DNA of 64,000 bases, taken from a virus. Its lineage: Duplodnaviria > Caudoviricetes. The position numbers and the translations under genes were made by a program. The notes below the pieces were generated by a model. The model did not search any database and was not told the origin of the DNA. It worked only from the letters and a program-made list of their open reading frames with translations. The stretch lies in IMG/VR virus record IMGVR_UViG_2936514734_000001, positions 32,001 through 96,000 of that record; one strand, written 5' to 3'. Shown in pieces: positions 24,527 to 54,592 of this stretch; the first letter of the stretch is position 1, and every line of letters begins with the position of its first letter.

Positions 24527-24552
24527 GAAACTATGTTCCAAATATTCAATAG
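24520..24552 (+). other. Ter-like replication terminator (RTP binding site)
   Basis: GAGAAACTATGTTCCAAATATTCAAT resembles B. subtilis TerI core CTATGTACCAAATGTTCAGT (17/20); 20-nt exact match to the site upstream of rtp. Confidence 0.75.
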
Positions 24553-34890: not shown

Positions 34891-35084
34891 AACAATTATA
34901 CCAAATTTCCAAAAAAAAATATATAGGTAAAAACATAAAGGAGGAATTTAAACCCTTGATACTAAAGGGTTTATTTGCTTTTGAAATTCTTAAATTTAAA
35001 GATAAATACCCATAAATGAACAATATTATACATAAATATGGTACATTTGTTTAGTAGTTACATTTGAAAATAGGAGAGATGGGA

Positions 35085-35573
35085 ATGAGTTTTCAGTACA
35101 AAATAACAGATCAGAGTTATGATAAGGAATACAAAGTTTGGGAATATGATAAGATGAGAAAGGAATGTGCTCAACCGGGCGTATATATAATTACTGATAT
35201 TGCTCAAGAAATTCTTTATGTCGGTGAAAGTGAAAATGTTGGACAACGTGTTCGTGATCATATAACTGGAACTGAACAATCAAAACGTGGATTTATAAAA
35301 AGAATTTGCAATATAAGGATTTACCTTTTCGGTACATTAAATCGTGATATAACTGACATGAAAATGTGCGAACATTGGGCTAAAAGAGAATATCCACCAC
35401 TCTTTTCAAAAGATAGCATTGAGTACGATGGAGGAGATACTATTGAGTATTTATCTGACAGCTATACAGTCTGGGAGAATTGGCACAAATATTATGCTAC
35501 AGTAGATGACGAAGTAGTAGATGGAAAAGAATATCAAGAAAAACTTAAAGCAGCTAATTTGAAGCTAAAATAA
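35085..35573 (+). CDS. GIY-YIG nuclease family protein
   Basis: PGVYII...LYVGES.NV..R..DH motif. Confidence 0.8.
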   Translation: MSFQYKITDQSYDKEYKVWEYDKMRKECAQPGVYIITDIAQEILYVGESENVGQRVRDHITGTEQSKRGFIKRICNIRIYLFGTLNRDITDMKMCEHWAKREYPPLFSKDSIEYDGGDTIEYLSDSYTVWENWHKYYATVDDEVVDGKEYQEKLKAANLKLK

Positions 35574-35687
35574 AGGATTTTGTTTGACATCTTCTTTTAT
35601 AAGTGCAAAACTGTAGTATATATTGGCTACTACTCATAGATTTTTTCTAGAGTAGGAAAAAGAGCAGACCTTTTGGCTTGCTCTTTT

Positions 35688-35867
35688 TTATATATTCTTC
35701 TTCATACCACAATTGATACATTCACGCAGGAATTTACCGTTACCTACGCTACTTTTAAACTTTACTCCGTTACAATTATCGCAACGGCCGCTGACTTTAT
35801 CAGGCATCTCACTGTATTCATAAATCTTTGTTAGATCAATATTTGCGTATTTATCTTCTTGTTCCAT
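35688..35867 (-). CDS. small zinc-ribbon protein (59 aa, not in ORF track)
   Basis: MEQEDKYANIDLTKIYEYSEMPDKVSGRCDNC...LRECINCGMKKNI; GAGGGA SD; bidirectional terminator at stop. Confidence 0.75.
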   Translation of the reverse strand: MEQEDKYANIDLTKIYEYSEMPDKVSGRCDNCNGVKFKSSVGNGKFLRECINCGMKKNI

Positions 35868-36095
35868 CTTAATCCCTCACATTCTTTGCTTATCATAGCA
35901 ATATACATAATAAAAAGAAAGGTACTCGAATATATATGACGTAAAACTTTTTAATACAAGAAAAACCCCCGACAATACTTTCATTGCCGAGGGCTTTTCG
36001 CTGTTGAGTAATTTGAATTTAATAAAGTAGTGGTAACGAGTTAGTGAGGCTCGTTAAAATTATTATAGACATTTTTCTACATTATATTCTAACAG

Positions 36096-36410
36096 TTACC
36101 ATTTAGGTCCTTTAGGTAAATCCTCAAGCATCATCATGTGTTTTACTTTAGTCTTAGCATGTTTAACTTCTTTTTCAGCCTTTTCCAGATTGTCAATCTT
36201 TTTAGTAAATGTATCAAAATAGGACCCCATCTCCTGTTGGAAAGCATCCTTCGCGTTACCTGATTTCCACGTAGTTAATTCTTCAACTTTGTTTTTAACA
36301 AGTAACTGTTCGGCTCGCAAATCGGAAATGAGGGAGTCTAACTTGCTACTCAAACGGTCAAGATCATCTAATTCTCTTTTATATTTCTCTAAGTTTTTTT
36401 CATCCATCAT
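36096..36410 (-). CDS. WXG100-like helical partner protein
   Basis: ~100-aa helical hairpin with central WKSG; overlaps lipase gene by 4 nt. Confidence 0.65.
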   Translation of the reverse strand: MMDEKNLEKYKRELDDLDRLSSKLDSLISDLRAEQLLVKNKVEELTTWKSGNAKDAFQQEMGSYFDTFTKKIDNLEKAEKEVKHAKTKVKHMMMLEDLPKGPKW

Positions 36411-37546
36411 TTTAAAACATCAGCCTCCACAAACGATGCCGCTGCAGCATTCAAGTTATTTGCCATTCGAGAGGTATCCTCGGCAAACCAACTACTAAGA
36501 TTATGCGCTTGTCCAATTACATCGTTTACGACACCTTCAGATATTTGAATACCATCCAACATTGTTGCATCTCGTTTAAAGGAAGAACAAAGCTCTTCCA
36601 CCCGTGACACATAGCCTTCCAGTTCACTCGCTAAATTAATTAGATGTTCTGGCATAACATTGATTGTTGCCATTTCTCCAGAAGCATATCTAGGGGACTG
36701 TGCTAAAGACTGACCAGTTAGAATGTTTGTTAGAATAGGGTTGTTTAAATTACCTACACCATCAAATTTGAAGTGTTTCATATTATGATAACTTTCTCCA
36801 GCTAGTGAACCCCAAGCTCTTGAAACAGGGTTGTATCTATTCTTTGAGTTCTCAAGATCAAAGGAAGAACCGATGTAGTATGCGGAACCAATATATCTTT
36901 TATAAGGATTAACAGCTCCAGAACTTATAGAATCTTTAGGGTGAATGTAATTTACGATTTGTTTATCAAACTCACCCTTAACTGCTTTCTCTTTTAGATC
37001 TTTAGGAAGCAAGTTGATAACACTTGGTCCGTTAAACGTAACAGCTTCTACATTATTTTTAGCAGCTGCATAAGATGCAATGGACCCAGCCAAAGAGTGT
37101 CCTGTTAATTTAATATTGTAATCAGGATATTCTTTCTTTACATCTTGAACAAGTTTATCTCCCTGACGAAATTGATTCTTCTGATGGAAATCAACGGACA
37201 ACTTCCCGCTATCATATTCAATGTTTAAACCAAGACGATCAACCTTCTTGCCGCGTACAATATAAGTAGCATCGGTTTTTACGTCCGGCCATGCGCGTCC
37301 TTGTGTAACATTCTCTACTGAGTTGGCTTCAGTACCACGATAAGCAATAACTATATTCTTTTTGTTCTTTAAAACCAAGGCATCAAAACCAGTCTCTGCA
37401 TCATGAACTTTAAACTTTTTACTTTTTATAGTTGTCCATTTTTCATTACCATCTTCATAATGGATAGTATAAGATTTTCTAGGTTTGATATCGTAGGCAA
37501 AGCCACTTAGCTCACGAAACGTTCTATCCCTTACATCTGTAATCAT
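36407..37546 (-). CDS. lipase-family putative T7SS effector with C-terminal WXG-like domain
   Basis: IAYRGT, GHSLAG nucleophile elbow, TFNGP; helical C-terminus ending in FVEAD (FxxxD). Confidence 0.8.
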   Translation of the reverse strand: MITDVRDRTFRELSGFAYDIKPRKSYTIHYEDGNEKWTTIKSKKFKVHDAETGFDALVLKNKKNIVIAYRGTEANSVENVTQGRAWPDVKTDATYIVRGKKVDRLGLNIEYDSGKLSVDFHQKNQFRQGDKLVQDVKKEYPDYNIKLTGHSLAGSIASYAAAKNNVEAVTFNGPSVINLLPKDLKEKAVKGEFDKQIVNYIHPKDSISSGAVNPYKRYIGSAYYIGSSFDLENSKNRYNPVSRAWGSLAGESYHNMKHFKFDGVGNLNNPILTNILTGQSLAQSPRYASGEMATINVMPEHLINLASELEGYVSRVEELCSSFKRDATMLDGIQISEGVVNDVIGQAHNLSSWFAEDTSRMANNLNAAAASFVEADVLK

Positions 37547-37618
37547 AATTGAAGCCTCTCTCCTTATTAGTGTATAATTCTATTATATAAGAATTTCCAA
37601 GAATTTGGAGAGATATGG

Positions 37619-37918
37619 ATGATTAATAAGAAATTGTTTGGCTTTATTTTTATTATTGGAATACTACTTTTAACAGGGTGCGGCAAGGAGGACGACATGG
37701 ATAAGAAAGAGATAGAGAAAACCGCTTCACATGTAGCATCGGAATATATGAAAGTGGAAGAGGATATGGATTTTGTTGTTACTGGTGTAGACTTTTTCGA
37801 TGGTCAAGGAGTAACAACTGTAGCTGTTAATGGACATGAAAAAGGAAAGAAAAAAGAACTAGCAGTTATCATCGATTATGGTGATGATTATAGAGTGCAA
37901 GGGACAGCGGAAAATTAA
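37619..37918 (+). CDS. lipoprotein, probable immunity protein
   Basis: Lipobox LTGC after hydrophobic signal; divergent from lipase. Confidence 0.7.
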   Translation: MINKKLFGFIFIIGILLLTGCGKEDDMDKKEIEKTASHVASEYMKVEEDMDFVVTGVDFFDGQGVTTVAVNGHEKGKKKELAVIIDYGDDYRVQGTAEN

Positions 37919-38897: not shown

Positions 38898-38998
38898 CTT
38901 AATAAAACCTTTTCATTTATAAAATGCAAACATTAATTTATACAAAATAAAAACGACTACCAAAGAGGGAGCCGCTTGTATTTATTCCTAATATTAAA

Positions 38999-39301
38999 TT
39001 ATAGCTTCATAAAGAAATCATTAACTGTATAATTAGTTTCGTATTTCTTATTAACCATTTCAATTGCCGCTTTAAACCTAAACATCGCATGCCTATCTTC
39101 ATAGTTATCGCCATATAGAAGGTAATTACAGAATGATATCTTGGTTAAGCTTATAACCATCAAATCTTTAAGATCTGGTTCATCAAAGTTTTCATATATT
39201 AACTTATAAAAGTTATCTAGTCGATTAAGCAGAGATTTTTCTGTAACCAAAATTGAATTCTCAACTTTCGTCCTTCCCATATGTACATCACTCGCTTTCA
39301 T
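38999..39301 (-). CDS. hypothetical protein
   Basis: ORF track; terminator at ~38945-38976. Confidence 0.55.
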   Translation of the reverse strand: MKASDVHMGRTKVENSILVTEKSLLNRLDNFYKLIYENFDEPDLKDLMVISLTKISFCNYLLYGDNYEDRHAMFRFKAAIEMVNKKYETNYTVNDFFMKL

Positions 39302-39833
39302 CTTTGTATATACAATAGAAAATAGAAAAAAGTTAGTTTTACTATCATCCGGTTGCTAACGTTAAGGATTCATCACTACACTAGAAGAAGAATGGTATCG
39401 ATATCCGGATAATAATTTAACTAACTTTTTTCTATCAATCAATAGTCGGCTTTTGCAAAATACAGGTGTGTTGCTTTTTTCACATTTTCATTTTTACCAA
39501 ATAAATGACTTATATACATTTTATAGAATTTTATTTTGAAATATATGAGTATTATGGGGCAAGGGATAGTACCACTATCATTTAGTTGCGTAACAGAAGA
39601 ACAAGCTTACAGCTACAGGGTTAATTGTGCCACTAAATTTAAGATCGACTATCCGTTGCCTTGGACCTTACATAATACCAGAAGTACGGTGAAACACCGT
39701 TGAATTCCACCGCATTTTTATTATTACTAATTAACTGGATATATATTCATCTTTTTCTTACAGAATAGTCCAATACATGGTAAAATCAGGTTAGATACAA
39801 ACAGAAAAATTGAATATAGGAGAGTGGCCGGGG

Positions 39834-40586
39834 ATGAGCTTAAGCATTAATGAGATAATAAAAAACAAAAGAATTTTTGAAATAGACGACGATTGCAATT
39901 ACTTCATCTTAGACGAGGACAAGATCAAAAAATGCATGTATTTTGACTACGTTATTGCTATAAAACATGGCGATTTACCTTACCCTAAAAAGTGGTTAAG
40001 GTTCTTTGATGTCGAACATCCCATAAAGGGACAGGTAATACCTATTGAAGAATACAATAGCGATGACTATGAATATGTTTTTATGCCGTACTTTAAATTT
40101 CCTGATGAACTCAAAAAGCCGCTTGAAGAATTAGGATATACTATAGATAAGGATTATAAAGCTGAAAATTTTTTAATTGAACTAGATAAAATTCCAGAAC
40201 AACTTCTACCTGTTGTTAAGAATATGATCATTGAGAATCAAGAACATAGTAGTGGACCAGAACAAAACGACTTTTATGTTTATGAGAAAGACGGTGAATT
40301 AGTTTATTTTTTAGTGGGCAAAGAGGAGGGTTTTGTTAATACTATTACCGATGAAGTAACAACTAAATTCCAAGATATAAAAACTTTAGAGGCATATGAA
40401 ACTCCATCTAAAGATACTTATTTATTTAAAACTAAAGACCCGCTTAGCAGCTATAGTTCTGAACGTTGGTTCGTATATCTAACTGCAGATCCAAATTTTC
40501 CGCGCCTTAAAGAAGTGGATGAAGTAGCAGACATGTTACCATATACATCTTTTAAAGCAACTGAACCAAAAGTTGAAGTTAAATAA
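39834..40586 (+). CDS. hypothetical acidic protein
   Basis: AGGAG SD; followed by GCAGACAG...CTGTCTGT terminator. Confidence 0.65.
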   Translation: MSLSINEIIKNKRIFEIDDDCNYFILDEDKIKKCMYFDYVIAIKHGDLPYPKKWLRFFDVEHPIKGQVIPIEEYNSDDYEYVFMPYFKFPDELKKPLEELGYTIDKDYKAENFLIELDKIPEQLLPVVKNMIIENQEHSSGPEQNDFYVYEKDGELVYFLVGKEEGFVNTITDEVTTKFQDIKTLEAYETPSKDTYLFKTKDPLSSYSSERWFVYLTADPNFPRLKEVDEVADMLPYTSFKATEPKVEVK

Positions 40587-40980
40587 AATAGGTGAGAATT
40601 ATTTAGCAGACAGGTTAAACTGTCTGTTTTATTTTTCTTTTACATCTCGATATAATAAGTTGTTTTTTAGATATGAAGACATAGCAAAAGACGGCCGAAG
40701 CCGCCTTATACCATAAGTTTTATCTTATCTAAAACAAAACTAATAATGTAGAACCTATTAACAAGAGAAAATCTTTTTTCTATATATATATGGTGTTAAT
40801 TTACCATGAAAGTTCTATTTTGTCAATTTTTTTATTCTGTCTCAATAGGATAAGTATTCTTAAATAAATGAGATATAAAAAAGAGCGACCGAAGTCGCCC
40901 AAACGATTTTATTCTACCTATAAACTTAATGCACTCCTATTTTATTGTAGCATAAGCACCCCTCTTTCTTAAAATAAATT

Positions 40981-41008
40981 GGTTCCTATAATATATCTTA
41001 TGTAAACT
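40981..41008 (+). other. dif site (XerC/XerD = CodV/RipX target)
   Basis: GGTTCCTATAA-TATATC-TTATGTAAACT versus B. subtilis dif ACTTCCTAGAA-TATATA-TTATGTAAACT (24/28, XerD arm identical). Confidence 0.85.
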
Positions 41009-41076
41009 AGAAAAAGAAATAAGAGAAAAGCTTACCCTTTTTTGAGTAAGCCTACATTATATAAATTCTATAAATT

Positions 41077-42240
41077 TTAATGTTTTACAACAGTTACATA
41101 AGTAAGTTTGCTGACATTATTTGAAGCATCCTTAGCAGTTACATTAATGGTAGTCCCTTTTTTTTGCACAGGGATGTTAACAGAAAATGATCCTTTTGAA
41201 TTTGCTTTTGCGTATCCAATTCTGTTTTTACCTACATTAACAGTTACAGTAGAATTAGCCTCAGCTTTACCAGTTACAACCTTATCATTATCATCTACTT
41301 TATTAACTGTTGGTTTATTAGGTGGAGTAACATCTGACTTTACAACAGTTACATACGTAAGTTTACTCACATTACCCGAACTGTCTTTAGCGGTTACATT
41401 TAGTGTAGTTCCTGCTTTTTGAACAGGAATACTAACCGAGAATGAACCATTTGAATTTGCTTTCGCATATCCAATTCGATTCTTCCCTACATTAACAGTG
41501 ACAGTTGAACCTGCTTCTGCTTTACCAGTTACAACTTTATCGTTATTGTCTACTTTGTTAACAGTAGGTTTATTTGGTGCCACTGTGTCTTTAGCAGCAG
41601 CTTCAAATAAAGTCGAGATTCCATATGCCTCACCAGTTTCACTACTATTTAAATCCATAACAGGTATGTAATATGTACCCGCTTTATTAACTTTATACTC
41701 TTGGACTTCTACTCCATCATCATATTCAGAACCTAAGTACTCTATATATCCATGATCTGAGTAATCATATTCAGTTGCCATAAATAATAAATCCATATCG
41801 GTAGGAGTATCTGTTACTCCACCTACTAATAGAGTACCTTTTCCAGATACGTATACCTTATAAAAATCTATATCGAAAGTATCATTAAATTGTCCAAATG
41901 TCATTCTATCATTTAGGAGTGTATCTGCTATTTTGAAATCATCATTAGGCTCACTCTCGTACATTGGCGACCCGCTACTACCACTAATACTAGCTGCATT
42001 AGATTTATTCGCTGAAAACGACTTTGGAGTTTTTAATGAGTTCAAAGTTTTCTCTTTAAAGTCATTCAGTACACTAGGGCTAATAACGTTATGATTGAGC
42101 GGTTTATCATTTTTCAATTGGCTTTCAATTGCTTTCTTTGAAGCCTCGTAATTGTTGCCTTCTGCTTGAGCTGTACCTACTGATAATGAGGAAGCTAGTA
42201 AACCTACGGACAATAATGAGATAATACCCTTTTTCTTCAT
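41077..42240 (-). CDS. secreted protein with PPC-like domain and two Ig-like repeats
   Basis: Signal peptide ending AQA; ESEPND and DIDFYKV motifs; two near-identical D(T/V)..PNKPTVNKVD...TAKD..NVS repeats. Confidence 0.8.
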   Translation of the reverse strand: MKKKGIISLLSVGLLASSLSVGTAQAEGNNYEASKKAIESQLKNDKPLNHNVISPSVLNDFKEKTLNSLKTPKSFSANKSNAASISGSSGSPMYESEPNDDFKIADTLLNDRMTFGQFNDTFDIDFYKVYVSGKGTLLVGGVTDTPTDMDLLFMATEYDYSDHGYIEYLGSEYDDGVEVQEYKVNKAGTYYIPVMDLNSSETGEAYGISTLFEAAAKDTVAPNKPTVNKVDNNDKVVTGKAEAGSTVTVNVGKNRIGYAKANSNGSFSVSIPVQKAGTTLNVTAKDSSGNVSKLTYVTVVKSDVTPPNKPTVNKVDDNDKVVTGKAEANSTVTVNVGKNRIGYAKANSKGSFSVNIPVQKKGTTINVTAKDASNNVSKLTYVTVVKH

Positions 42241-42382
42241 CGAATCTCTCCCCTTAGTTATATGTAACTATCCACTTGCTATGACTATGATACTACTAAA
42301 ATTCCAGCAGAACCACATATTCTCATATTCAAATTTCGACAAAAAAAAGAGCAGCTTAACGCTACTCTTCTTGTGTACACGA

Positions 42383-43213
42383 TTAAGGCATCGGTATAGC
42401 CTGAACCGCCTCTATAAATTGTGGTATAGTAGTTGCTAATGCTGTACCAGCACCAGCTAATCCTGTCACATTAGTTAATGCAGTTGTTGCTCTTCTAATT
42501 AATGAAGGCTTTACTTCCTCACCATTTTCAACTTTTTTAGCTATTTCCTCTACATGATCAATAGCATCTTCTTTCAGCTCTGCATTATCAATATTAGAAT
42601 CTTTTAAAAGCTGAATAAGTTCTTTTGCAATTGATTGTATACCTTCACCTTCATGATTATTATTAGTTTGATTTAATGTAGTATCCCCATATACATCTCC
42701 TTCGTTAGACAGAAAGTTTCCTACAGAAGAATTATTGAATACGTATTTTGCATTTTGTTTTCCTTCAATACCCATTTTTATCGCTTTCTCCTCTAAATAA
42801 GACGTAATATGATCAACTAGTAGATTAACTACTTCTCTATTGAAATTTTTAATCATGTTAACTATCTTTCTGCCCTCACGATATGGAAAAGCAAAATCAT
42901 AATACGACAGATTATTCTCTGTAATATGCTTAAGAAGTTGATAGATATAACTAACTTCTTCATTTTCATCAAATGGAAGATCAAATTTATCTTCGCCATT
43001 TTTTTCTTCAATAATTTTATTAAAGTCATATACTCGCGTGTGGTTCTTTTCAATAAAATCTTTAATGATTGGTTCTTTATCTATTGTGCTAATAAATCTT
43101 TTGGTTAGTCGCAGCGCCTCGTCCATATCAGTTGCTCTGAGCATTTGACCAAAAGCTTTTCTAAAGTTTTTAGATAAAATTTTAAAATCTTCATATGACA
43201 TAACTATTTCCAT
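42383..43213 (-). CDS. hypothetical protein, candidate defence gene
   Basis: 276 aa; Asn-rich linker and C-terminal helical bundle; abuts the upstream Zn-finger gene. Confidence 0.6.
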   Translation of the reverse strand: MEIVMSYEDFKILSKNFRKAFGQMLRATDMDEALRLTKRFISTIDKEPIIKDFIEKNHTRVYDFNKIIEEKNGEDKFDLPFDENEEVSYIYQLLKHITENNLSYYDFAFPYREGRKIVNMIKNFNREVVNLLVDHITSYLEEKAIKMGIEGKQNAKYVFNNSSVGNFLSNEGDVYGDTTLNQTNNNHEGEGIQSIAKELIQLLKDSNIDNAELKEDAIDHVEEIAKKVENGEEVKPSLIRRATTALTNVTGLAGAGTALATTIPQFIEAVQAIPMP

Positions 43214-43672
43214 TTAATTCACCCCACAATACGGACAGTATGGGCCCGCACTCGCCTTTATTAGAGTAGAAACCTTTGCTTTCTTTAAGCAGCATTGAAA
43301 CTCTACAATATCGTAGTCATTTTGCTCAAAAAGCGGTTGAGGACTGATGCTGGGCTTTAAAGGCTTTCCTGGTTTGAATGTGACATTTTTATTTCCCTTA
43401 AAGATTTTACCAATATCCTTAACGGCTTCATTAAGTAAGTCTATTGCATATTGTTCTGCTTCTGCGTTTGCATTCTCAATAATATCTTCAGTAAGGAACT
43501 CAGAAGGTTCTTGTGGAATTCCACAAGAAGGGCAGAAAATTTGCAGCACATGGTCTTCCTCCACGTCTCCTGGTACAAGCTTAAAACCCTCACTACACAG
43601 GCTACACTCGAAAGAAGAAAAACCATCGTGGTCAGTTTGCTTAGTTATTTCTATTCTTTTTTCCACTAACAT
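43214..43672 (-). CDS. zinc-ribbon protein
   Basis: CSLC..CPSC and CC..CPYC motifs; GAGGAG SD. Confidence 0.7.
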   Translation of the reverse strand: MLVEKRIEITKQTDHDGFSSFECSLCSEGFKLVPGDVEEDHVLQIFCPSCGIPQEPSEFLTEDIIENANAEAEQYAIDLLNEAVKDIGKIFKGNKNVTFKPGKPLKPSISPQPLFEQNDYDIVEFQCCLKKAKVSTLIKASAGPYCPYCGVN

Positions 43673-43842
43673 TTCTCCTCTCTTATACATCAAATATAGA
43701 TTTGCAAAAAGATGCTATATTTCTACAACCTTGGATATATTTACTTATAATTATAGCAAAAAAAAAGAGAGTAGTCGCGACGAACCACTCAAAAACTACC
43801 GATTAGATTAACTTGAGAAATTAATGTGTAGAATAGTATGAA

Positions 43843-43870
43843 CCACATTATGTCATATCTTATGTAAACT
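43843..43870 (+). other. dif-like site (intact XerD arm, degenerate XerC arm)
   Basis: CCACATTATGT-CATATC-TTATGTAAACT; downstream flank also repeats that of the 40981 site. Confidence 0.65.
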
Positions 43871-43895
43871 AGAAAAGGAAATAAAGGAAACCTAC

Positions 43896-44144
43896 TCATT
43901 TCTGATTTAGGATTTCTAAGTGTTTTTGATAGTCTAGATAATATTCTAATGTTCTTTCATATTCATTTGCTTTATTAGCATACTCTAGGTTAATCTTCTT
44001 TTTAATATCATCATTAATGACTAATTCATCATTGTAAATATTTTTCTTTTTCATGTTATTTAGTCTGCTATGATATTGTTTAGCGGAGTTTTCTCCAATT
44101 TTAGTTTTAGTGTGTACATCTGTTAAGTAAGTTGGAAAATTCAT
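43896..44144 (-). CDS. stand-alone integrase N-terminal (SAM-like core-binding) domain-like protein
   Basis: AGGAGG SD before MNFPTYL; F..YL...ENSAKQY..RL and Y..L.YYLDY pattern. Confidence 0.5.
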   Translation of the reverse strand: MNFPTYLTDVHTKTKIGENSAKQYHSRLNNMKKKNIYNDELVINDDIKKKINLEYANKANEYERTLEYYLDYQKHLEILNQK

Positions 44145-44156
44145 AAGTAACCTCCT

Positions 44157-44184
44157 AGTTAACATAATGTAATTTAAAAAGGAA
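44157..44184 (-). other. inverted dif-like site
   Basis: Minus strand TTCCTTTTTAA-ATTACA-TTATGTTAACT; XerD-type arm intergenic, other arm overlaps a gene end. Confidence 0.5.
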
Positions 44185-44659
44185 ATCTTCCTGGTCCATT
44201 AACTCGCTGAGGTTCAGGTGCGTAAAAGCTACAATAACCGAAGTGGTAACATTTCATTTTATAAAGAATCACTAAAGCTTTTATTGTATTCATTTTGTCT
44301 TGAAGCCCTTTTCCCTCAGCATAAGAAAAAATATGGCTTTCGACTTCCTTGATCTCTGCTTCTAATTTGATTTTTATATTTTCTTGCATTTCCCTATCTT
44401 TTTTTAGGTACTCATACCATTCCTTCTCTGATTCCTCTTTTGGCTCAGGAGGCATTTCTCTTTTGTTCATAATTTCAGGTACACATATATCTTTTGCATT
44501 AGAATAAATCTTTGCTAAGCTTATTTCGATATACCTTTCGCTATCGACACCAAATTCATGAAAATACGAACATATATTGTCTCTATACTCATTAATTTCT
44601 TCTTTTAGTTTCCTTTTAACTGTTTCTACTATCTCTTTATCTGTATCAAAATCAATCAT
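44174..44659 (-). CDS. hypothetical protein
   Basis: GGAGGG SD; ORF track. Confidence 0.65.
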   Translation of the reverse strand: MIDFDTDKEIVETVKRKLKEEINEYRDNICSYFHEFGVDSERYIEISLAKIYSNAKDICVPEIMNKREMPPEPKEESEKEWYEYLKKDREMQENIKIKLEAEIKEVESHIFSYAEGKGLQDKMNTIKALVILYKMKCYHFGYCSFYAPEPQRVNGPGRFPF

Positions 44660-44938
44660 AGCGAATCCCTCCTGTTACACTTATTTGTTTCTCCTAGATT
44701 AAAAAATGCATAACGTAAACATATTCTTCATCTAATTCAATAATCCTTCTTAATTAGAAAAAAATTCTTATTTTGACATAGAAAAAGCGGCTAACATAGT
44801 TAACCGCCTCTTCAAGCTTTTTAAATTGATTTCATTTTACGTTGTAATTGTTGAACATTGCTGTTTAATTTTAACATGGGTATTTTTGTGGAACAACGGT
44901 AATTGTTTCCTTCAAAGGAACATTAATCCTTTTGAGAC

Positions 44939-45124
44939 TCATAAGTCTTTTGGATATTCATAAACCATTTGCATTTGGAAAATATCATGCTCTGTAATGT
45001 TTAATTTCTTCAGTTCTCCTTGAAATGAACGCCATGGTTCGATACGAATTACTCTTTTAGTACCATTTCTAAGTGTGTATATCCTATACATAACTTCTGG
45101 TGGCTTTTCATAACGTTTAGACAT
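44939..45124 (-). CDS. hypothetical protein
   Basis: AGGAG SD; ORF track. Confidence 0.6.
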   Translation of the reverse strand: MSKRYEKPPEVMYRIYTLRNGTKRVIRIEPWRSFQGELKKLNITEHDIFQMQMVYEYPKDL

Positions 45125-45229
45125 TTTTAACTCCTAATGATATAATTAAGTTTCTAGTTGTATTTTTGCTAAAGAGAGTATTACCTTTTGGTAATGCTCT
45201 TTTTTATTATACCAAAGATTTTAACAAAG

Positions 45230-45697
45230 CTAGGCAGCCACACTTACTTTTTCCTCCAATAGTTGATAAACCTTATCTAGTGATAATTTTTTAATTTCTC
45301 CATGATCAATCAAGTAAAAATACTTATTACATCTTACATAGTCTTTATATACAACCATGTCTTCAGCGGAGAAACTTTCTCCCATTTGAATAAAGTGAGT
45401 TCCGCTATCTCGTAATAACCACAGACCTTTCTTATCTCCTTCTAAATATGAATATAGATCATGAAGGTAAAAGTCATTTTGATAATGAGATAAATGCCTA
45501 CTAACAACCTTCTCCATTTCAAGTAGTTCAGGATAATTAGCAGGATCATGTCCTTCTGGAATAGCCCAGTTTTTTGTTTTATACTTCTCATTTAATTCAC
45601 TTACTTTATCGTATAACTCTGACAACAGCGGGTCTGTAAGCGTTTCTCGTTCAATCCATCTACCGTCTGTATATGTGTAAAAAATAATATCTGTCAT
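45230..45697 (-). CDS. hypothetical protein
   Basis: AAGGAG SD; terminator at ~45170-45205. Confidence 0.65.
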   Translation of the reverse strand: MTDIIFYTYTDGRWIERETLTDPLLSELYDKVSELNEKYKTKNWAIPEGHDPANYPELLEMEKVVSRHLSHYQNDFYLHDLYSYLEGDKKGLWLLRDSGTHFIQMGESFSAEDMVVYKDYVRCNKYFYLIDHGEIKKLSLDKVYQLLEEKVSVAA

Positions 45698-45764: not shown

Positions 45765-45950
45765 TTAACTATTTTTCAGTCCGGGTTGTGGGTAAGCAGT
45801 GTTGATTTCTGCTAAAGTTTTTAATACTTCATCACTAGAAAACTGTAGTCTCTTCATATACTCCTCAGTATATCTACGTCTCGCTGATGAAGGCTTAGAG
45901 GAAATAACTACAACTTTACCATTATCATACCGTTTTTTCTGAACAGTCAT
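45765..45950 (-). CDS. small partner protein of the DUF4062 gene
   Basis: ATGA overlap; GGAGGG SD inside upstream gene; terminator follows. Confidence 0.6.
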   Translation of the reverse strand: MTVQKKRYDNGKVVVISSKPSSARRRYTEEYMKRLQFSSDEVLKTLAEINTAYPQPGLKNS

Positions 45951-47134
45951 GATTGAATCCCTCCTATTAAATCAGCTACAAAGTTTATAAGCAGGATGTT
46001 ATTACTCATTATAGCATATTCCACTTCGTCCTTGTAAGAGTTAGCTTGTAGGTCTGTCCATTTTTTCTCAATTAACGGATAATGAAAACATAATACAAAC
46101 TCTTTGGACTTAATTGTATAGTAAAGCAATTCTTTTGCTTCAGAATAACCTATTTCTCCATTATCACTAGTATAACAATTCACTACATATGAAGTATCAT
46201 CAGACAAATCATACTCTTGAGTTGGTGTTGTTTCACCGCAACAGCCACAAAGCTTCATTTTTCCATTATCTTGTTTGTAAACAGTCATAGCATTACAACT
46301 ACCAATTGTATTTACTTTCTTTTGAGTTCTTGTACCTGGACGTATAAAAATTTCTCCGCCACTTAACTGAACTCTAGCTGTGTTTAAAAACTCTCCCCAG
46401 TCAACTACTTTTCCATTATCTATAAACGATAATAATGAAGTTGTATACTCCTGATACTGTCGCAAGACTTTTGCGGCATCTGCATTTACAGCCATGCTTT
46501 CTTTATGTGGAATCAGCTTGATTCCTTGACCTAAATGATCACTAAAGTAACCATTAATTTTCTGATAAAATTCTGGTGAACGGGATATGATAAGATCCTC
46601 TGTCCAAACTCGTGCACGCTGAACATCAAAAATAAACGCCCACAAAAAAGGATGAAATCTTTTCTCTTTCAACATATCTCTTTGTGCATCACCCAAATTG
46701 TTTTGAATTACTTCCTCAACTATATCCATTGTATAATTAGGTTCGCGATGATTTGTTTCCATATATTCTTTATAGCGTTTGTTTAAAGGTGTCTTAATAT
46801 GCTCGTCATAAACGCGTTTTATTTTTTCGTCAAAGAAAGCGATAACATACTTTTTCTCCTCAATTGCTGTAAAGAATTCTTCATATGTAGGTGTAGTTTT
46901 CGCCTCTTCCCAATACGTTCCAACATAGTTGTTTACAAGCAGGATAAAAATATCACATTCTTTAACCTTCTGTATACAAGTCTCCATTGTGTCATCAGCC
47001 CAAGGGTAAAAATTCTCCTCAAACAACAAAGGCTGATGGCCCGAAGATTCTAAATGTGCTTTTAAATCTTGTCTTAACGGTTTTAGATCGTCATCATATG
47101 CTGAGCTAACAAAAATCTTAGCTGGATTTGGCAT
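45947..47134 (-). CDS. DUF4062 (TIR/NDT-like) domain protein with possible C-terminal GAF-like domain
   Basis: KIFVSS...DL...R, C...V..CDIFILLV...G, T..EF..A motifs. Confidence 0.75.
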   Translation of the reverse strand: MPNPAKIFVSSAYDDDLKPLRQDLKAHLESSGHQPLLFEENFYPWADDTMETCIQKVKECDIFILLVNNYVGTYWEEAKTTPTYEEFFTAIEEKKYVIAFFDEKIKRVYDEHIKTPLNKRYKEYMETNHREPNYTMDIVEEVIQNNLGDAQRDMLKEKRFHPFLWAFIFDVQRARVWTEDLIISRSPEFYQKINGYFSDHLGQGIKLIPHKESMAVNADAAKVLRQYQEYTTSLLSFIDNGKVVDWGEFLNTARVQLSGGEIFIRPGTRTQKKVNTIGSCNAMTVYKQDNGKMKLCGCCGETTPTQEYDLSDDTSYVVNCYTSDNGEIGYSEAKELLYYTIKSKEFVLCFHYPLIEKKWTDLQANSYKDEVEYAIMSNNILLINFVADLIGGIQS

Positions 47135-54038: not shown

Positions 54039-54425
54039 TTATCTAACAGGGCCGTAATGATCCTCTAAAGCTTTATCCAATAACCCCCTACACCGTTCAA
54101 GCTCAACTTTCATTTGCTTCTTATAAAGGTCATATTCTTTCTTTCCTTCATCCGTAAGTGAGTATAGGATAATCTCTTGAAAATCAACGCCCTTCTCCCC
54201 TTTGATTTGGCGTTCCCTTTTGACTAACCCATCCCTAGTCAATTCGTGTAATACTTTATATGTTTCTGTATGAGTAGGTTCATACCCATACTGTTTAAAT
54301 TCTTTACGTAAATCCCCTAAATATTGAGACGCATACCCTTTATGCTTATCAATTGTCTTGTATATGTATAGCTTCAAAAATGCACGTTGCTTTAATAAGA
54401 AACCTCTATTTTTAAACTCACTCAT
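54039..54425 (-). CDS. rtp: replication terminator protein
   Basis: GFLLKQRAFLKLY...EF...G..P.HTE.Y..LHEL..DG...QE..LY...YKKQ.KVEL.RC..L..KAL.D closely follows B. subtilis RTP. Confidence 0.9.
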   Translation of the reverse strand: MSEFKNRGFLLKQRAFLKLYIYKTIDKHKGYASQYLGDLRKEFKQYGYEPTHTETYKVLHELTRDGLVKRERQIKGEKGVDFQEIILYSLTDEGKKEYDLYKKQMKVELERCRGLLDKALEDHYGPVR

Positions 54426-54449
54426 TATATACACACCTTTCGAAAGTGT

Positions 54450-54559: not shown

Positions 54560-54592
54560 CTATTGAATATTTGGAACATGGTTTTTGAGAAA
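54560..54592 (-). other. Ter-like replication terminator upstream of rtp
   Basis: TTTCTCAAAAACCATGTTCCAAATATTCAATAG; 28/33 identical to 24520-24552. Confidence 0.8.

Follow-up and report, generated by a model that had tools for sequence, protein, structure and literature searches.

How did a short block of accessory genes come to lie between a whole and a half dif site, the target of the Xer recombinases, in a viral genome? This question is raised by a locus in a stretch of 64,000 nucleotides (bases 32001-96000 of the 239,374-bp IMG/VR virus record IMGVR_UViG_2936514734_000001), which is called the window here. The record is that of a jumbo phage-plasmid. At 40981 and 43843 of the window, two sites of the dif type stand as direct repeats, and three cargo genes lie between them. 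Most knowledge of elements that exploit the Xer recombinases comes from Vibrio, Neisseria, Enterobacter and Acinetobacter, where they move toxin and resistance genes. The evidence set out below suggests that the block was probably captured at the dif of the phage-plasmid by the Xer recombinases of its host.

Two dif sites and the block between them

Site 1 (40981-41008, plus strand) is a full dif of the 11-6-11 design, with the XerC/CodV arm at 40981-40991, the spacer at 40992-40997 and the XerD/RipX arm at 40998-41008. Its sequence, GGTTCCTATAA-TATATC-TTATGTAAACT, agrees at 26 of 28 positions with the chromosomal dif of the Priestia megaterium type, GGTTCCTAGAA-TATATA-TTATGTAAACT, and it is the sole full dif in the 239-kb record. 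Site 2 (43843-43870, plus strand) is a half dif, CCACATTATGT-CATATC-TTATGTAAACT, in which a non-dif left arm (43843-43853) precedes the spacer and an intact XerD arm (43860-43870). The spacing from site 1 to site 2 is 2,862 bp. Compared with site 1, site 2 keeps five of the six spacer bases, an identical XerD arm and, to the right of this arm, an A-rich extension of 14 nucleotides (nt), which reads AGAAAAAGAAATAA after site 1 (41009-41022, plus strand) and AGAAAAGGAAATAA after site 2. The left arm of site 2 matches the XerC-arm consensus at only 2 of 11 positions and scores -22 bits on the matrix, on which real arms score +10 to +16.

The two sites share an exact 22-mer, ATATCTTATGTAAACTAGAAAA, which runs from the second base of the spacer through the XerD arm and six bases further. 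It was found at window positions 40993 and 43855 only, even when up to three mismatches were allowed, and in 0 of 100 shuffles; the 21-mer has two occurrences in the entire 239-kb record. When the record was scanned with a dif hidden Markov model (HMM), site 1 was the best match (E 1.5e-5), and the top three matches of the 239 kb all fell inside 3.2 kb. The match at site 2 covered the spacer and the XerD arm only. The two-site feature is real and non-random. Beyond the 22-mer, the flanks of both sites turn into related, non-identical sequence. Since the 22-bp identity decays into related flanks in this way, it is not a duplication of the transposon or target-site type, and the relatedness without identity fits recombination between two related sites. 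An earlier sequence-only reading of the locus had described two directly repeated sites with a shared XerD arm, spacer and flank, a degenerate second XerC arm, and a secreted immunoglobulin (Ig) gene with a zinc-finger/helical gene pair between the sites. All of this is borne out, the last part by the cargo genes described below.

The exact position of the block emerged from a comparison with plasmids. In a megablast search of the region, only Priestia plasmids of 110-170 kb were matched. The matches comprised site 1 and its left flank and, in pY11, also the right flank of site 2. The left, XerC-side flank of the dif (40810-40980, plus strand) is 79-81% identical to the dif locus of Priestia plasmids of rep_cluster_385, and it is also present in a metagenome contig (L109). 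The right, XerD-side flank of the ancestral dif locus (43871-43931, plus strand) consists of the 14-nt extension and a terminator and is 87% identical to pY11. The left half of the plasmid locus thus aligns to the left flank, XerC arm and spacer of site 1, and its right half to the XerD arm, extension and terminator of site 2. A virtual join of 40780-40997 to 43860-44000 gave an unbroken alignment of ~230 nt to the single dif locus of pJ2_pA, pN447 and pY11. As the joined halves are colinear with a single plasmid dif, the 2,862-bp block sits exactly in dif, and because the alignment runs unbroken across the junction, the Priestia plasmids serve as the empty-site reference. An ORF-free unit (ORF, open reading frame), led by a promoter at 40826-40798 on the minus strand, is located just upstream of the conserved flank of ~170 bp.

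The three cargo genes are all on the minus strand. The first (41077-42240) encodes a secreted protein of 387 amino acids (aa) with a signal peptide, an N-terminal domain and two Big_6 Ig domains (Pfam Big_6, 1.6e-41). The second (42383-43213) encodes PDC-M14B, an all-helical protein of 276 aa (PADLOC PDLC04449, 4.4e-84), and the third (43214-43693) encodes PDC-M14A, a double zinc-ribbon protein of 159 aa with two CxxC...CxxC motifs (PADLOC PDLC04447, 2.1e-50). Both the M14A and the M14B profile are matched by adjacent genes, as in the PADLOC candidate defence system PDC-M14, and the two genes constitute a candidate anti-phage defence pair with a predicted role in defence. An AlphaFold2 (AF2) model of M14B was made (predicted local distance difference test, pLDDT, 72), and no fold match for it was found in the PDB. 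A literature search on PDC-M14 returned nothing relevant. The block has terminators of its own at both ends. One is the intrinsic terminator of the Big_6 gene (41028-41053, minus strand), which abuts the dif and for which the extension after site 1 doubles as the U-tract on the minus strand. The other (43769-43790, minus strand) shields the cargo operon from transcription entering from the right. Neither a recombinase domain nor a transposase nor inverted terminal repeats were found in the cargo, and its three genes contain no replication or transfer domains.

Probable capture at dif and its alternatives

The block encodes no recombinase, and a tyrosine recombinase (PF00589) is likewise absent from the whole 239-kb record. 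Any recombination at the dif sites must therefore use host enzymes. On dif, CodV occupies the left half and cleaves the top strand; RipX prefers the right half but can bind both halves (PMC5357621). The identity between sites 1 and 2 begins one base inside the spacer, which is the CodV cut position. Xer-mediated capture of the cargo at the dif of the phage-plasmid, with a crippled site 2 that locks the cargo in, is a fairly probable reading of this layout. The 2,862-bp block would have entered dif, presumably by way of a circular intermediate, in a Xer crossover with DNA that carried a spacer, a XerD arm and the A-rich extension and that was devoid of a CodV arm. The crossover would have rebuilt a whole dif on the left (site 1) and would have left a hybrid on the right (site 2), the left arm of which would be cargo DNA. 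CodV is not expected to bind site 2; therefore, the direct repeats would recombine poorly, the cargo would be locked in and site 1 would stay usable. The cargo would stem from a pool of accessory genes that Priestia chromosomes and plasmids carry next to dif, on its XerD side.

Relatives of the cargo are indeed found next to other dif sites. Homologues of the Big_6 gene (~82% nucleotide identity) lie 1.7-4.3 kb from the chromosomal dif in two genomes (G020 and G013) and in four metagenome contigs, all of them on the XerD side and oriented like the gene of the window. Big_6 remnants occupy the same chromosomal place in three genomes (G025, G018 and G023), and a remnant of the 3' end of M14B, 117 nt long and including the terminator, is present 0.9-1.3 kb from the chromosomal dif in three contigs. 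In cross-species comparisons, chromosomal homology is kept up to dif, breaks at +35, +102 or further right, and resumes beyond ~+3.5 kb. Clustered at 90% identity, the Big_6 protein of the window falls into a cluster of 23, the members of which are found on plasmid-sized contigs and on contigs of 4.8 and 5.75 Mb from several Priestia species; in P. flexa, a gene of this cluster adjoins an M14B homologue. The closest M14B homologues match at 99, 92, 85 and 72%. The closest cargo homologues are carried by two P. megaterium contigs of 237,699 and 241,296 bp (proteins MGG1071191 and MEK1828946), by a P. flexa contig of 136,838 bp (MCP1191390/91) and by the chromosomes that encode WP_377559529 and WP_377520310. 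Where the Big_6 gene recurs by a dif of the chromosomal or plasmid type, its neighbours are different and a second site is lacking, and the M14 pair recurs without dif. As a separate observation, Big_6 genes, intact or decayed, were located in the variable stretch of ~3.5 kb that adjoins the chromosomal dif on its right, XerD side (L098-L105).

The flank that is common to sites 1 and 2, AGAAAA(A/G)GAAATAA, had been taken in the sequence-only reading as the mark of a related donor replicon. This idea has to be abandoned, because, throughout the P. megaterium group, the flank comes after the XerD arm no matter whether the dif is chromosomal or on a plasmid. The extension AGAAAAAGAAATAA was found after the XerD arm of the chromosomal dif of G020, G025 and G018 and of the main dif of pJ2_pA and pN447 (two of the three plasmids examined), and G023 has a one-base variant of it. 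The variant at site 2, AGAAAAGGAAATAA, is also that of pY11 and of a metagenomic locus of the chromosomal type (L110), and at the dif and the array sites of P. endophytica the extension takes a related form. The 14-nt extension is a family-wide feature of dif, and its other strand provides the U-tract of converging terminators.

The arrangement seen in the window, in which a small cargo separates a full dif from a weaker direct site, was also found elsewhere. The metagenome contig L109 (Ga0209463_1009634) has a full dif at 701-728, one ORF of 169 aa and a direct half site at 1390-1417. This half site has a perfect XerD arm, a spacer of which the last three bases are those of the full site, and no XerC arm. 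The left flank in L109 is of the plasmid or phage-plasmid type, and a Big_6 gene is located further right. All three Priestia plasmids examined have, 463-464 bp rightward of the main dif, a weaker direct site with the arm TTATGTTAATT; the two enclose a 56-aa ORF (L003:4622, L004:4451 and L005:4579). The proposal of the sequence-only reading that accessory genes are acquired here by Xer recombination has thus gained comparative support as far as acquisition at dif is concerned, namely from the empty-site plasmids, the dif-adjacent Big_6 genes and the recurring layout, with Xer as the presumed agent.

Dif-like junctions are also found in larger numbers. In P. endophytica, 41 were counted, versus 2 with a reversed-pattern control; other genomes of the family have up to 48 (controls 0), and two Priestia plasmids have 18 sites each (controls 0). 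In P. endophytica (G005; L030-L039, e.g., L037:168-8482), up to ten co-oriented sites form one array, in which they are 0.3-2 kb apart and surround small single-gene modules. Each junction consists of a terminator T-tract, then an arm of the CodV type, a spacer of 6 bp, TTATGT(A/T)AACT and, on the 3' side, a conserved extension. After each array site of P. endophytica, a motif follows that is roughly A-N4-TG(A/T)ATA-N2-GTATACA. Literature searches on pdif (plasmid dif) sites or on integrative mobile elements exploiting Xer (IMEX) in Bacillus and Priestia, and on the Priestia junctions, returned nothing relevant. A more general idea, which is put forward tentatively, is that Priestia may possess a Xer gene-capture pathway, by which modules would stack on the XerD side of the main dif in chromosomes, plasmids and the jumbo phage-plasmid, the incoming site needing no more than a spacer and a RipX arm with the 14-nt extension.

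Several observations weigh against capture by Xer in the form proposed here. The proposed integration would have to use a site that lacks a CodV arm, and such a site is a poor substrate. In the Priestia cassette arrays, 33 of the 35 XerD-anchored sites have good XerC arms, and site 2 is atypical in this respect. In the known one-armed IMEX sites, those of TLC, the gonococcal genetic island (GGI) and EludIMEX-1, it is the XerD arm that diverges while the XerC arm is kept (PMC5357621), whereas here the XerC arm is degenerate and the XerD arm is kept together with five of the six spacer bases. No second dif-like site was seen by the chromosomal Big_6 copies, and a 2.86-kb unit with both of the same ends was not found elsewhere in the searched data. 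Furthermore, the M14 pair occurs without a nearby dif in P. endophytica (L022, the single M14B match in the genome contigs searched) and in megaplasmids of the B. cereus group.

The main rival explanation is unlikely. The phage-plasmid may have formed a cointegrate, via dif, with a Priestia chromosome or plasmid and may have left it by a faulty exit, in which the far junction recombined with a non-dif sequence beyond M14A and the DNA next to the donor dif was taken along. Such an event would resemble specialised transduction and would involve no cassette. The Big_6 gene and the M14B remnant are on the XerD side of the chromosomal dif in the order and orientation of the window, and the extension of site 1, AGAAAAAGAAATAA, is of the chromosomal type. 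The left arm of site 2 resembles arbitrary DNA, and chromosomal copies without a second dif-like site are what this model expects. However, in every sampled chromosome 0.9-4.3 kb of other DNA separate dif from Big_6, versus 68 bp in the window. The small units of a full dif, cargo and a weak site, as seen in L109 and the three plasmids, better fit the insertion of a cassette. In addition, the identity boundary at site 2 is at most one base away from the CodV cut, a position that a random second crossover would not favour.

It is improbable that site 2 is a decayed second dif. In that case, two full dif loci would once have stood in tandem, as the outcome of a cointegrate or a duplication, and deletions would have taken most of the intervening DNA along with the second CodV arm, so that the boundary at the spacer would be accidental. 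Selection would favour the inactivation of a second direct dif beside a working one, and the sites and their extensions are homologous without being identical, as this explanation would have it. On the other hand, a deletion that ends no more than one base from the border of arm and spacer would be a coincidence, and a similar layout is seen in L109. Moreover, no trace of the plasmid-type left flank was found upstream of site 2.

An insertion unrelated to Xer (by transposition or by homologous or illegitimate recombination) that struck dif by accident is very improbable: although this phage family has a variable accessory island in its terminus region in any case, the cargo has neither a transposase nor inverted terminal repeats, a target-site duplication would not look like a 22-bp repeat that passes into diverged homology, and a second exact XerD arm in the same orientation within 3 kb, for which the estimated expectation is ~0.003, was seen both here and in L109.

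The replicon and its terminus

Tail and virion proteins are encoded at 1-34 kb of the window, and the closest named phages are the Bacillus jumbo phages Edson, vB_BceM_WH1 and vB_BauM_KLEB27-3, with ~40% protein identity. The 239-kb record also encodes a RepA_N initiator. The replicon is a jumbo phage-plasmid and not a bacterial chromosome. A gene for replication terminator protein (RTP) is present at 54039-54434 on the minus strand (Pfam PF02334, 3.5e-42). The Ter-like 20-mer ATGTTCCAAATATTCAATAG lies at 24533-24552 (plus strand) and, inverted, at 54560-54579 (minus strand), where it adjoins rtp. The two 20-mers are an exact inverted pair, and dif is enclosed between them. Together with the RTP gene, they look like a chromosome-style fork trap in a phage genome. 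The cumulative GC skew reaches its maximum at 65-72 kb of the record and its minimum near 210 kb; site 1 is located at record position 72,981. Several features (the turn of the GC skew, the RTP gene, the inverted Ter pair and the RepA_N initiator) place site 1 at the replication terminus. Site 1 is best read as the putative dimer-resolution site of the phage-plasmid, which would be worked by CodV and RipX of the host.

Three related jumbo phage records (G001-G003; 80% identity in a virion protein) also encode RTP and RepA_N. In these relatives, 38,916-45,283 of the window (6.4 kb) is swapped for 1.65 kb, and neither a dif-like site nor the cargo is present anywhere in them. The terminus region is an accessory island, and the dif of the phage-plasmid is, from this comparison, a lineage-specific acquisition. 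Scans of IMG/VR with the 21-mer, the M14B family and the right-hand neighbour revealed no close relative of the locus. A dif-like site was found in 48 viral contigs, none of which had two. A second 'viral' record with RepA_N (IMG/VR, 122 kb; G004) contains one dif-like site (L006:10632-10659), in which the spacer TATATC and the XerD arm are as in site 1.

A third site was found close to site 2. Site 3 (44157-44184, minus strand) is a partial site in inverted orientation; its XerC arm is poor, and its XerD arm is the variant TTATGTTAACT. It is the second-best match of the dif HMM in the 239 kb (E 0.01), and TTATGTTAACT is the common XerD-arm variant of Priestia cassette junctions. Sites 2 and 3 bracket an 82-aa ORF (43896-44144, minus strand), the ribosome-binding region of which is overlapped by site 3, in a small module that has an inverted, pdif-like layout with both sites partial. 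Homologues of the 82-aa ORF form a small cluster. One of them shares a contig of 5,146 bp with an M14B homologue, and none was found in PLSDB plasmids. The 82-aa ORF was also considered as a relative of the 56-aa ORF beside the plasmid dif and was found to be unrelated to it.

Other accessory genes surround the dif at 35064-37918 and 45947-47134. They include a GIY-YIG gene, a DUF4062/TIR-like gene and a class-3 lipase gene, which has a WXG100-like partner. In the chromosome of G022, a plasmid-type dif is split into TTATG and TAAACT parts (L127:1040-1046 and L128:730-751) that are 61 kb apart. An explanation by Xer integration of a plasmid was rejected, as the break lies inside the XerD arm and the sequence joined to the left half starts with GTGCG, which resembles the 5' end of a group II intron. 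Such an intron may have inserted into this dif, followed by a rearrangement.

Comparison with known Xer-exploiting systems

If the capture proposed here took place, the exploitation of Xer would be extended to a Gram-positive genus with CodV and RipX, and also to a virus, namely a jumbo phage-plasmid that terminates its replication and resolves its dimers like a chromosome. Candidate anti-phage defence genes would be traded among chromosome, plasmids and phage. Under the wider capture pathway put forward tentatively above, the replication terminus of the phage would even be a landing pad for such trade with the host chromosome and plasmids.

The locus shares with the IMEX (TLC-phi, GGI and EludIMEX-1; PMC5357621) the lack of a recombinase of its own and the placement of DNA between a whole dif and a degenerate direct repeat, and the degenerate site, which holds the element in place in the IMEX, would do the same here. 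Unlike in these elements, it is a jumbo phage-plasmid whose dif serves as the target, in a host of the Bacillaceae with CodV and RipX, and the cargo, which has no replication, transfer or phage functions, is not a self-standing element. The reversed polarity, with the XerD arm kept and the XerC arm lost, raises the question of which recombinase starts the reaction. A capture that needs the RipX half only would be the mirror image of the known one-armed IMEX sites.

The pdif modules of Acinetobacter are similar in that small accessory modules lie between XerC/XerD sites of the 11-6-11 design without a linked recombinase, and in that many sites occur per plasmid in the host genus, as in the two Priestia plasmids with 18 each. 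However, the sites that delimit a pdif module are inverted, whereas those around the 2.86-kb block (sites 1 and 2) are direct repeats, which makes the pdif analogy a loose one. Only the 82-aa module is inverted; furthermore, the phage-plasmid has one full and two partial sites. The sequence-only reading had likened the locus to both IMEX and pdif modules. What survives of this likeness is the pair of direct dif and dif-like repeats and the absence of an own recombinase; the inverted layout of pdif and the arm polarity of IMEX do not agree with it.

The cer site of ColE1 and the psi site of pSC101 are plasmid dimer-resolution sites that use host Xer and have accessory sequences on the XerC side. 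Here, too, an extrachromosomal replicon is predicted to borrow host Xer through a dif-like core, and ~170 bp on the XerC side are conserved and common to the phage-plasmid and the Priestia plasmids. In contrast to cer and psi, site 1 is nearly identical to a chromosomal dif and is located in an RTP/Ter fork trap, as this arrangement appears to be, at the switch of the skew. The Priestia cassette junctions belong to the same family of sites as those described here, but they form arrays of mostly full sites on plasmids and chromosomes, whereas the phage replicon has a single dif that would be in working order and a half site. Taken together, the locus is a new version of the IMEX and dif-module theme in its host, its type of replicon, the polarity of its sites and its cargo, with mechanistic steps that would be those proposed above.

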